From assembly GCA_918797485.1 (NCBI GenBank), contig CAKKNE010000001.1, positions 1,488,001 through 1,552,000 of the forward strand: a stretch of 64,000 nucleotides of DNA. Direction: 5' to 3'. The notes below the pieces were generated by a model, which saw only the letters and a list, made by a program, of their open reading frames with translations, did no database searches and was not told the origin of the DNA. The translations under genes and the position numbers were made by a program. Positions 821 through 61,024 of the stretch are shown piece by piece. The number at the start of each line of letters is the position of its first letter. Position 1 is the stretch's first letter. The stretch is from Pelagomonas calceolata (Eukaryota).

Positions 821-1545
821 ATCCGCAGCCGCAGTAGTCGTAGTCCGTCGTTCGCCGGGACGGCTGGGCCAGAGCAATGTTCGGGCCCCGCTGCCGAGGG
901 TTGTCCCGCCGCACGTTCAGCACGCGCTGGGCCGACTCGACGAAGACGCTCTCGACGAGCTTCTCGTTCTTGGCGCTCAGCTCGACGAAGAGCATGCCGT
1001 GCAAGTCCGCGAAGGCCTTGCCCTCCGCGCGCGAGATCTGGCGCTTGGACTCGAGGTCGGCCTTGTTCCCGACGAGCATTAATACCAAATCGGGGTTCGC
1101 CGCGTTCTGCCGCGCTTCCTGCAGCCACCGCCCCAAATGGTCGAAGGACTCCCTCCGGGTCACGTCGTAGACGAGCAAGCAGCAGTCCGTTCCTCTATAA
1201 TAACTTCGTGTAATAGATAAATAAGACTCCTGGCCCGCCGTGTCCCAGATTTCCAGGTTCGCGGCCTCGCCTCCCGCTAATTTGACGGCGCGGCTGTCGA
1301 ACTCGACGCCTGCGCGGAAAGCAACCATTTATTCTCCAGAAGACGACGCGCGTCGATGGCGTGAAGGCACCTCCACACGACGGGACGGCGAGATACGGCG
1401 CCGGCGCGGGACCGATCGTCATGTCGTGGGCCTCCCCAAAATGTCTTTCGGTAAACATGAGCATGAGGCTCGACTTGCCTACTTCCGTATCGCCGATGAT
1501 GATGTACTTGAAGAGGTGCGGCTCCTTCGTTGTCGCGGCGGCCAT
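819..1545 (-). CDS. RAB2: Rab2-like small GTPase; exons 1545-1413, 1309-819
   Basis: [21 protein letters not shown] restored by splicing, [21 protein letters not shown]-terminal CGCG prenylation motif. Confidence 0.92.
1310..1412 (-). mobile_element. Old introner-type intron (GT-AG, 103 bp)
   Basis: Contains ACGCCATCGACGCG core and ends TTGCTTTCCGCGCAG (degenerate TIR); TSD not recognisable. Confidence 0.6.
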
Positions 1546-1736
1546 GTCGGGCTGCCCCGCGGGCGCTTCCGGGCTGCCGCCGCAGGCTGGTTGCGCCGGT
1601 GCTCGGCGCGGGTGCTCGGCGCGGGTGCTCGGCCCTGCTCGCGCAGCCGCGGCGCACCGCTTCGGCGCTCGAATTTATGAAATAATGTGCGGGAGCGGCC
1701 GGCTCGGGCCGCAAGAGGTACTATACTTATGTACTT

Positions 1737-2040
1737 CATAGGGTAAGGTAAAACGGCAGGGGGGATTAAAGCTGCGACTATCAGAGCGACCGGGGGTATT
1801 CCACCGGACATAGGAACCGCTATTAGATTTATGATCGACCGACTTGACCACTCTCCAAAAAATCCCGCAAGCCGTGCGGTACCGTCGTCATGGGGGTAAG
1901 GTATTTTAAACGGGCCGGGATTAAAACCAAAAATATATCAGCGACACCACTATTACACAGGACATAGGGACCGGTATTGGATTCATGATCGACCGACTTG
2001 ACCATTTTAAAAATATCCGACTTTTTTTTACCATGCTCCA
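1737..2040. repeat. Diverged tandem duplication, about 152-154 bp unit, relatively AT-rich
   Basis: GGACATAGG..CCG.TATT.GATT.ATGATCGACCGACTTGACCA at 1806-1850 and 1960-2004; CAT..GGTAAGGTA..AAACGG..GGGATTAAA at about 1737 and 1889. Confidence 0.8.
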
Positions 2041-58824: not shown

Positions 58825-59479
58825 CGCTGCGGCGGCGTCTTGGGGGTCTGAGACTCCCCTGCGCAGCTCTGAACTTGGCCGCTCGACCTTGGCGTTGTGC
58901 GCGCTCGCTGCAGTGGCTTCTTGGCTGTATCTAGGACTGCCAACGGCAAACGTAACGTAATTTGCGTCCGCGCGTCGACCGCTATTCGACCCGCTTTGCC
59001 GAGTCTCAGGCGCCGCAAATCGGGTTTTGAATTTGAAACGTCCGTGCAGCGGTCCGAGGCGTCTCGGAGGGCTCCGCTCCGAGGCCTGCGACGGCTCGCT
59101 GGCCCGTCGAAAACACTGCGCTCTCCGCAAAACAGGGAGACAAGCAGCGGCTTTATCGACTTGTGCGAAGCCCTCGCGCGAGCCAACCAAGCCATCGCCT
59201 AGGCGTATCTCTTTGCCGCAGTAGCGAGCGCAAATTCGGCTCGTCTTCGGGTCCTCGGAAGCCCCGGCGCGCCCAAAAAAGAGGCTTGGCGCCTGGCAAG
59301 CGAACACATTAATCTAAGGCCGCGGCGGCGCAAGCGCGCCCCGAGACGGTCGCGCGCGCTTGCCACAGTCCGGGACCCAACACAGAAGGCCCCCTGTACT
59401 CTCAAACAGCTTGCGCCCGCACACCGCGCGGACCGCCTCGCCGAGCCCTATAAAAAACACAAAAAGCGGCGACCGAAAC

Positions 59480-61024
59480 ATGGCCGAGGCCTGGCGCTCG
59501 AAGCCCTTCCCCCAGACCGTCGCCTGCCAGATCTGCACCCTGGAATTGACCATACCAAGCCCGGAAGTGATCCCGTTCCTGAGTTGCGAGGCCTGCGGCG
59601 CGACGCCCTGCGCGCGGCTCTGTGGCAGGTGGTTCGCGAGCGAGCAGGGCGCGGCGAAGCACACGCTGAGCTGCGGGCGGATGGCCGCCAGGAAACCGAA
59701 ACCCCCGGCGTCGCCCCCGAGGCAGGCTTCTACTTTACCGGTGCACGGCTTGTTGGAAGGTGCCGCTCCCCCAGCGCCCTCGCCCGTCGTCACGCCGCCC
59801 GTGCCGGGCGCGCGCGACGCCGCCGTCGCGCGCGCCGGCGCCGCCGCGCCGCGAGGAACCGTGGTCGTGAACGGGGAGCCCCGGGGTGCAGGGGCGCCGC
59901 CGCCGAAGCCCAAGGCGAAGAGCTCGGCGCCGAAGCCCAAGGCGCGGCCGAAGAAGCGCGTCAAACGAGAGGCGCCTCCACCAGCACCGGTGGAAGAGGC
60001 GGAGCCGCTGCCGCCAGCGCCCGCCGATAATGAAGTTGCGGAGGGCGCGGCGCTCGCACCCCGAGCCTTCCGCGAGAAGCTCAGCAAGGCCCTCGACAAG
60101 CTAGGCGGCCGCTACAACCTCGAGACGTCGCCCGGCGTGCGGGGCAACTTGCAGCCCGCGGTCCAAGTGTGTGCTTCCGGCCAAAGAGACGCGCACTATG
60201 GAGCGGTGTTGCCGGCGCTGGTGGTCTCAATCTGTGTGGAAATCATGACCTCCACGCCATCGACGCGGCGCCTGCTCGACGGCGTGGCGATGCCGGTTCC
60301 TCACCGCTCGACTCACTGGTTGATTTCCACACAGGTCTCAATACTACGCCACGCGCGCTTCCAGCCCGGCGAGACCTTCGCCGATGTGGGGAGCGGTATT
60401 GGCACCGCGGTGCTACAGACGGCTCTTACGACAGCGTGCGCGCGAGCGACGGGCGTCGAGGTCGTCCAGACGAGACACGAAGCGGCGCTCCGAGTTCATG
60501 CCGCACTGAGGGAGCTACTTTCCGATGACGAGCGTTCTATTCTAGAAGCCAAGTGCGCTCTTTGTCTCGGCGACGCGTTTTCAGATTCAACCTCTGCCTT
60601 CCTAGCTTCATGTGATGTCCTCTTCGTGAACAACGCGTCGGGCACGATGGCTCCCGAACGCGTCGCCGGCACGGCACTCGACGAGCAGCTCGCGAACGTC
60701 GCGAAACGGTGCCGCGTCGGCAGTCGCCTCATCGCGATGGACCGGATCCCTTTGTTAGATGAGTGCAACGCGTTCAAACTGGAACAGTTCTACTCGTCGG
60801 AACGCGCCGTGACCTGGACGGACGCACCCGTGCCGTTGTACGTCTACGCCAAAAAGGCGGACACGTGGCAGTGTCGAAGATGCACCTTCGCCAATCCATT
60901 AATGGACGACTACCACTTCATCACGGAGTGCCAGGCCTGCTCCGACGAGATGCGGAGTCGCTTCGGTTTGAACGACGGCGAGCGCATTTCCGGGAGGAGG
61001 TCGCGGTCGCCGCGGCCGACTTAG
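59480..61024 (+). CDS. DOT1-like histone H3K79 methyltransferase with a C-terminal RanBP2-type zinc finger; exons 59480-60223, 60335-61024
   Basis: HYGAVLP, FADVGSGIG...Q.AL, GVEV, GD, DVLFVNN, VTWT; WQCRRCTFAN...CQAC. Confidence 0.85.
   Translation: MAEAWRSKPFPQTVACQICTLELTIPSPEVIPFLSCEACGATPCARLCGRWFASEQGAAKHTLSCGRMAARKPKPPASPPRQASTLPVHGLLEGAAPPAPSPVVTPPVPGARDAAVARAGAAAPRGTVVVNGEPRGAGAPPPKPKAKSSAPKPKARPKKRVKREAPPPAPVEEAEPLPPAPADNEVAEGAALAPRAFREKLSKALDKLGGRYNLETSPGVRGNLQPAVQVCASGQRDAHYGAVLPALVVSICVEIMTSTPSTRRLLDGVAMPVPHRSTHWLISTQVSILRHARFQPGETFADVGSGIGTAVLQTALTTACARATGVEVVQTRHEAALRVHAALRELLSDDERSILEAKCALCLGDAFSDSTSAFLASCDVLFVNNASGTMAPERVAGTALDEQLANVAKRCRVGSRLIAMDRIPLLDECNAFKLEQFYSSERAVTWTDAPVPLYVYAKKADTWQCRRCTFANPLMDDYHFITECQACSDEMRSRFGLNDGERISGRRSRSPRPT
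60224..60334 (+). mobile_element. Introner intron, GT-AG, 111 bp, perfect TSD
   Basis: GTCTCAAT at 60224-60231 and 60335-60342; TIRs CTGTGTGGAAATCA / TGATTTCCACACAG. Confidence 0.97.

Follow-up and report, generated by a model that had tools for sequence, protein, structure and literature searches.

Introner elements (IEs), which form introns, have already been catalogued in the alga Pelagomonas calceolata and its relatives. Guerin et al. (bioRxiv 10.1101/2021.10.25.465678; PMC9481584) give a GC content of 63% for P. calceolata and describe 956 putative IEs with GT/GC donors, AG acceptors, conserved terminal inverted repeats (TIRs), and an intron-length peak at ~210 bp. The dataset rows of a later survey, fam1-fam39, include 11 families for P. 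calceolata, of which fam2 comprises 340 introns and is entered as a TIR DNA element of 202 bp with a 13-bp TIR and a "co-opt 5' carry 3'" scheme; its introns start 7 positions before the element, and it is classed as hAT via the RepBase match hATv-2N1_EHux (Gozashti et al., 2025; PMC12130899). The Aureococcus rows of the same dataset also read "co-opt 5' carry 3'". An earlier study reports Aureococcus, Pelagococcus, and Pelagomonas metagenome-assembled genome (MAG) families, including an Aureococcus sp. family with an 8-bp target-site duplication (TSD) (Gozashti et al., 2022), and a review cites Huff et al. (2016) for stramenopile introners. Here we describe an intron-making element family in a gene-dense stretch of 64,000 nucleotides of P. 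calceolata (hereafter the window: assembly GCA_918797485.1, contig CAKKNE010000001.1, forward-strand positions 1,488,001 to 1,552,000), whose GC content is 62.7% and whose proteins have their best named homologues in pelagophytes.

The family is of a kind already published for this algal group, and introners of this type have been reported from P. calceolata itself. It shares GT/GC donors, an AG acceptor, and TIRs with the IEs of that species, the host GC contents being similar, and is probably a catalogued P. calceolata family or its sister. The likeness to fam2 is one of description: the fam2 element of ~202 bp compares with shorter window copies (64-183 nt), and the fam2 table gives no TSD length. 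The TIR word and the fam2 consensus were not found in the 13 of 14 supplement files searched, and a family consensus or TSD analysis may already exist in the published supplements. In Aureococcus anophagefferens, a TIR element described by Huff, Zilberman and Roy in 2016 reportedly supplies the 3' splice site itself and draws the 5' site from an 8-bp TSD. That layout, compared here apart from the end sequences, is the same as in the window; the host is a different lineage, to whose TYW1 the window TYW1 is 69.5% identical.

An intron-forming element family

We hold it likely, with a probability of roughly 90%, that the introns listed below are non-autonomous cut-and-paste DNA transposons (introners) that are spliced out with one copy of the target duplicate, as RNA shows for two of them and as is predicted for the others. 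TSDs were scored by comparing the first 8 nt of an intron with the 8 nt that follow its AG; apart from TIRs and TSDs, copies share a core sequence.

60224..60334 (+): introner intron, DOT1-domain gene; TSD copy GTCTCAAT (60224-60231) and element 60232-60334; both TIRs; TSD 8/8
49513..49636 (-): introner intron B, TYW1; TSD copy GTCGAGGC and element 49628-49513; both TIRs and CCTAACTCAC; TSD 8/8
50200..50322 (-): decayed family-related intron A, TYW1; right end with 5 mismatches, core with 1; TSD 3/8
44293..44447 (+): introner intron 3, ABC transporter gene; both TIRs perfect; TSD 6/8
43763..43860 (+): introner intron 2, ABC transporter gene; both TIRs; TSD 5/8
42641..42712 (+): introner intron 1, ABC transporter gene; left TIR perfect, right TIR mostly lost; TSD 3/8; frame restored
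39507..39585 (+): introner intron, ankyrin-kinase gene; both TIRs; donor 9 nt outside the TIR; TSD 3/8; frame restored
16312..16459 (-): introner intron, predicted splicing; GC donor; both TIRs; TSD 4/8
17307..17497 (-): decayed introner intron, predicted splicing; GC donor; left TIR with 3 mismatches; repeated cores; TSD 7/8
8085..8238 (-): decayed introner intron, conserved 236-aa algal gene; GC donor; left TIR with 4 mismatches; TSD 7/8
52917..53037 (-): decayed family-related intron; left end with 5 mismatches, core with 1; TSD 3/8
11360..11439 (+): weak candidate; core absent; ends differ from the TIR at 7 and 9 positions; TSD 6/8; frame restored
1310..1412 (-): intron of a Rab GTPase gene; right TIR with 3 mismatches, perfect core, left TIR missing from the expected place; TSD 4/8
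56541..56659 (-): predicted intron, predicted splicing; perfect core, no TIR, no TSD

Frame checks gave 21 predicted introns in the window, with 14 related to the family, 3 doubtful, and 4 unrelated, which bears out the initial annotation in its statement that one family accounts for most introns here (14-17 of 21). Its further statement that about 18 introns share TIRs was too generous: both TIRs are present within 3 mismatches in six introns (16312, 39507, 43763, 44293, 49513, and 60224) and one TIR is kept in three more (the left in 42641 and 17307, the right in 1310), while the remaining members are tied to the family by a core, a TSD, or a weak end. The 14 introns comprise seven strong and seven decayed copies spread over 11 genes, and their similarity, found in introns of unrelated genes, extends to the 3' border of the intron, weakly so in 11360 and 56541. 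Without the TSD the elements are 64-183 nt long and non-coding, with 15-bp TIRs in six copies. The TIR 15-mer CTGTGTGGAAATCAA occurs in the window at up to 3 mismatches as eight left and seven right ends, and CCTAACTCAC is exact in four copies.

A profile built on seven seeds recovers all seven, a copy at 8095-8225, and a few weak matches. A position weight matrix scan gives 17 matches above 12 bits, against 0.67 in shuffled sequence, 13 of the 17 being its own seeds. Core matches at up to 1 mismatch fall inside the 18 listed introns (2123 bp in total) in 17 of 18 cases, an enrichment that is partly circular because the candidates 56541 and 61050 were themselves found through the core. Matrix matches at 7438 and 25623 and a core match at 12296 lie outside predicted introns and were dropped. 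Individual copies can be close: the 8085 copy is identical to the 60232 copy at 38 of 41 bases, and the core of 56541 is a 22-nt exact match to the 39516 copy. The intron inventory was largely based on frame continuity and may be incomplete; a codon-model Viterbi placed only the larger exons, and a general repeat search of the window was dominated by GC-rich coding repeats.

Splicing of the elements

The borders of 11 candidates, 60224-60334 among them and 52917-53037 not, were fixed before polyA reads were mapped on 40401-60400 at 90% likeness. Junctions were found at 60224-60334 (GT..AG; 24 and 46 reads in X21 and X22) and at 52917-53037 (37 and 46 reads), each of them also in a contig of another study, X11; both fall at the predicted borders. 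Cross-mapped copies crowd the joint list and mask the junctions of genes with weak expression. Reads in the polyA data that stem from other copies match the window copies by the thousand and on both strands, which suggests a large genome-wide family. At 60247-60312, polyA reads from other loci continue into a longer segment of a subfamily, which also occurs, reversed, in the relatives L002/L004 (L002:2448-2591).

Protein comparisons point to the same borders. The spliced TYW1 aligns with 15 homologues without an indel at the junctions of introns A and B, and the spliced 8085-8238 product is identical at 236 of 236 residues to the database protein P0121, which comes from a 1224-nt contig. The latter junction lies within a YVP.G[ML] motif that is kept in 71 of the 73 homologues showing Y[VI]P (120 homologues in all). 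In the relative L005, uninterrupted open reading frames (ORFs) match the spliced products at 82% identity for the ABC transporter (1294 aa) and 78% for the ankyrin-kinase (591 aa), and the Pfam ABC_membrane profile breaks at 141 and restarts at 145 across intron 43763-43860. Removal of 16312-16459 and 17307-17497 together restores one long ORF. In sum, borders set by a GY donor in the TSD and an AG acceptor in the TIR are backed by RNA for two copies and by homologue identity or alignment for three more, the rest being predicted. Together with empty orthologous sites, these junctions and alignments sustain the initial reading of the family as MITE-like introners (MITE, miniature inverted-repeat transposable element) that are removed without a scar, the donor coming from the 5' TSD copy and the acceptor from the CAG of the TIR.

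Empty sites in relatives

A search with a TYW1 exon returned 80 metagenome loci, of which 67 were checked and 13 left out for partial matches. L001-L004 and L036 are close lineages with 83-89% DNA identity to the window, and L005 is a syntenic 34-kb contig with ~75% identity. L001-L004 must be DNA because they carry unspliced elements, L005 because it spans many genes on both strands, and L036 is probably DNA; many of the distant TYW1 loci may be transcripts.

All seven window introns that are covered by relatives are absent from at least one of them, where a single target copy stands without an indel and the coding length is unchanged. The DOT1 intron site (60224) is empty in L003, the sites of ABC introns 1-3 and of the ankyrin-kinase intron in L005, TYW1 site A in L001-L007, and TYW1 site B in L001, L003, L005-L007, and L036; site B is filled in L002/L004, with a different perfect TSD. 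The absence of intron A from L001-L007 marks it as a recent gain, not an old intron. Script scoring of the 67 TYW1 loci found them uninterrupted at sites U and A in 62 and at site B in 64; by eye, interruptions occur only in L001-L004 and L002/L004, and L013 and L051, which the script missed, are uninterrupted. Intron positions shared with distant orthologues would have spoken against the introner reading; where this could be tested, the distant TYW1 loci are uninterrupted at these positions. No TIR match was found in the 12.8 kb of L005 examined, nor in the more distant pelagophyte-like loci L005-L007.

The neighbourhood of TYW1 has also changed. In L002, L003, and L005 the genes at ~57400-59000 join TYW1 directly, without the ~5.7 kb (51700-57400) that separates them in the window, and this block was therefore moved or gained in the window lineage.

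Target-site duplication and proposed insertion mechanism

In 16 copies (13 from the window and 3 from relatives), the TSD positions 1-8 match in 15, 15, 11, 8, 11, 10, 9, and 10 cases, and positions 9-14 in 3, 2, 0, 4, 3, and 4. Since matching drops sharply past position 8, the duplication is 8 bp long. Over positions 3-8 of the 13 window introns, 43 of 78 cells match, against 21.6 +/- 4.0 when introns and flanks are mispaired, and none of 7324 permutations reaches 43. The six TSD counts given in the initial annotation are all correct (8/8 at 60224 and 49636; 7/8 at 8238 and 17497; 6/8 at 44293 and 11360). With regard to a palindromic target bias (T2/A7, as in Hermes), pooled flanks read GTCCAGAC and GCCCGGAC, a pattern that mixed orientations under selection for GT would also give; by eye, 3-4 of 14 oriented target sites end in AC or GC. 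The intronic TSD copies of three decayed introns now begin GTGCG (judged by eye on few sites), and donor optimisation of the intronic copy is a by-eye lead.

In the mechanism we propose, a transposase encoded elsewhere would place the element in an exon and duplicate 8 bp of the target, after which the element is spliced out along with one TSD copy, as RNA shows for two copies and as is predicted for the others. A single target copy and no indel are left in the mRNA. The 5' TSD copy begins with the GT or GC that serves as donor, and because the element runs CTG...CAG an AG acceptor is available from either end; copies do lie in both orientations relative to the gene (reverse copies are found at one TYW1 site in L002-L004). 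We infer that exonic insertions would survive only at targets beginning GT or GC, and that both the element, at its ends and in its body, and the intronic TSD copy would then drift, with internal deletions, until little beyond the core remains.

In an alternative account, put forward for fungal introner-like elements, the introns would multiply as RNA through reverse splicing. In its favour, polyA reads are rich in family sequence, and five copies with both TIRs fold into stable long hairpins (z -2.7 to -6.1). Reverse splicing, however, would yield copies of the entire intron in sense orientation. Here the repeated unit starts only after the first 8 intron nucleotides, which themselves duplicate local exon sequence; inverted repeats form the ends, and copies are found in both orientations. 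The hairpins, moreover, result from the TIRs and are lost in decayed copies that still undergo splicing (z -0.8 to 0.2); reads show splicing of one such copy, which makes the hairpin dispensable for it. We regard spread by reverse splicing as highly improbable and retain DNA transposition.

For the mobilizing enzyme, a hAT-like transposase is the most likely candidate, by a modest lead. The 8-bp TSD is consistent with hAT without being unique to it, and hAT-derived MITEs (Ac/Ds, Hermes, hATx-6) likewise combine an 8-bp TSD and short TIRs with internally deleted, non-autonomous copies. Known hAT ends start with (C/T)AG, from which the CTG...CAG ends of the window family differ, no transposase was found, and P and Merlin elements also make 8-bp TSDs. 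Hermes favours a T as the second and an A as the seventh TSD base (PMC8721813), a bias that would suit GT donors.

Several observations weigh against the introner reading. First, 6 of the 13 TSDs match at only 3-4 of 8 positions (3/8 at 39507, 42641, 50200, and 52917; 4/8 at two more), and 11360 and 56541 lack most hallmarks of the family. Second, among the 15 joints listed for 40401-60400 (213 further were found), junctions appear for two of seven family introns; the reads cover the stretch of 7 of the 14, and the junctions of 12 rest on prediction or homology. Third, the TIR hairpin of intact copies is predicted to bury the AG acceptor. Finally, no transposase was found: a Pfam search gave no transposase domain in 50 window ORFs, viral contigs held no element (two patterns gave 0 matches), and prokaryote assemblies gave a single contig-edge match (L081) with no transposase partner.

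A shorter pattern had eight lone TIR matches in viral contigs, which are AT-richer contigs and show no second TIR, and these were read as chance. The L081 match (L081:2653-2673) is an element end at the contig edge of a proteobacterial MAG and is likely a misjoin or algal contamination.

Decay and family structure

The initial annotation had also inferred a long or repeated invasion from a decay gradient among the copies. Across 13 introns, TSD match shows no correlation with TIR mismatch (Spearman -0.31, p=0.31); the two do not track each other, so a single gradient is unsupported, and a model of decay on one clock was tested with the same outcome.

This lack of correlation leaves room for another explanation, that the decayed copies represent several related introner families, or ordinary old introns that secondarily acquired an element or a core. 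The introns at 8085, 17307, and 11360 keep 6-7 of 8 TSD positions despite poor ends, the intron at 56541 has a core only, and eleven families are catalogued for P. calceolata. The Rab intron, removal of which restores the frame at TIG|VEF with the Pfam Ras profile resuming at position 33, has a donor followed by ~30 nt that are not element sequence, and could be an older intron that was invaded secondarily. Rab genes presumably share an intron position at TIG|VEF, in which case the element entered an ancient intron here or took its place. On the other side, the decayed TYW1 intron A is a recent gain, the 8085 copy closely matches the intact copy at 60232, and every site tested is empty in relatives. 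We consider several families or old introns the less likely account of the decayed copies, and drift of introners after insertion remains the preferred one.

Possible same-site turnover in TYW1

A TYW1 site ~25 nt upstream of intron A, with the target GTCGCGAC, is empty in the window and filled in its relatives by different elements: L003 has one subfamily there and L002/L004 another, both as reverse copies, and L001 has the forward end of a third subfamily. Three element bodies in both orientations at one site of sister lineages suggest hotspot re-insertion or in-place replacement. L001 and L003 form a sister pair (91% identity, bootstrap 88) with a common derived exon sequence, GTGGCCAC, and the intronic TSD copy of L003 retains the older GTCGCGAC, from which it follows that the insertion likely predates their split. 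Since the two lineages now carry different elements, one would then have been replaced in L001 or L003, unless the L001 contig edge is chimeric. At site B, the window has GTCGAGGC twice and L002/L004 have GTCGCGGC twice, different perfect TSDs around copies of one subfamily, and L036, the lineage nearest to the window (0.886), is empty. This may record one gain or two, the tree giving low support to the order of window and L002 (57 and 41).

As an addition to the introner account, element bodies might turn over at fixed intron positions, either through return of the transposase to favoured targets or through excision and gap repair; in the latter variant another copy would replace the body and refresh the TIRs, and the old TSD would keep drifting. 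Besides the two TYW1 sites, seven strong copies are consistent with such turnover, as 18 of 42 cells differ over TSD positions 3-8, against 4 of 105 in the left TIR next to them (Fisher p=2e-8), a contrast that is inflated because the copies were chosen for intact TIRs and the TSD comparison adds two branches. The same contrast could arise if the donor or the TIR hairpin were under selection. The case comes, moreover, from a single gene, only 31 nt of the L001 element lie on its contig, at an edge where chimeric assembly is possible, metagenome contigs may be mosaics, and the tree does not separate window from L002. We consider turnover of bodies less likely than not. Somewhat less probable still is that fixed positions are refilled or overwritten by other subfamilies in either orientation, with palindromic targets such as GTCGCGAC hit repeatedly, and it is equally doubtful that hotspot re-insertion or in-place replacement operates as a general process.

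Parallel gains by introner-like elements have been described across distant fungi, within a 15-bp window (Collemare et al., 2015; PMC4457414). Like the TYW1 case, these are independent gains at nearly the same gene position, but the fungal elements lack TIRs and TSDs, whereas here different bodies and orientations occupy the same nucleotide in lineages that are 79-91% identical in DNA. A literature search of titles and abstract openings, which covered few subscription papers, found no report of in-place introner replacement in pelagophytes.

Other features of the window and its homologues

The predicted introns that are doubtful members of the family, or unrelated to it, are as follows.

14569..14624 (-): predicted intron of 56 nt, of doubtful membership; core with 2 mismatches
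9888..10020 (-): predicted intron, likewise doubtful as a member; core with 3 mismatches, which is chance level; neither TIR nor TSD
61050..61127 (+): candidate intron and doubtful member; GT..AG stretch closely following the DOT1 stop codon; core repeats
4306-4648, 9618-9806, 11612-11654, 15234-15373: unrelated predicted introns

Three eukaryote-type TYW1 homologues (P0009, P0011, and P0054) carry, at a single site, an insert resembling an intein (Pfam PF14890; C...HN|C ends), which separates the second from the third Cys of the radical-SAM CxxxCxxC motif; in the homologue alignment the window TYW1 (49230-51379, - strand) has no such insert. TYW1 is, to our knowledge and without a literature search, not among the known eukaryotic intein hosts.

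Elsewhere in the window, 5494-7230 and 27982-29259 are paralogous genes of DUF285 repeats, a domain known mostly from bacteria, with Pro-Thr/Ala-rich stalks and 72-86% DNA identity over long blocks. Two AT-rich near-copies of ~180 nt each, unrelated to the introner, stand head to tail at 1740-2040, upstream of the Rab gene. The 3' end of a Lys/Ala-rich gene (12215-12290) is duplicated ~1.76 kb downstream (13970-14047), and the sole core match outside introns (12296) adjoins the 12215-12290 copy. An intron-free ORF of 1824 aa at 22014-27488 has no Pfam match, and a tandem array of 29-nt units in 4-5 copies (38893-39035) lies upstream of the ankyrin-kinase gene.

Implications

In its main part this work finds again a mechanism of mass intron gain that has been published, and catalogued, for the same group. 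What the window and its relatives add is a test case in which close ocean lineages differ in introner presence, subfamily, and orientation at single nucleotides of a conserved gene. If bodies do turn over at fixed positions, intron positions shared among close relatives would often be non-homologous, and the age of an introner sequence would not date its intron. If such turnover were genome-wide, the rates of parallel gain, precise loss, and in-place replacement would be measurable from existing metagenomes, and the pattern would bear on how far shared intron positions prove common descent.

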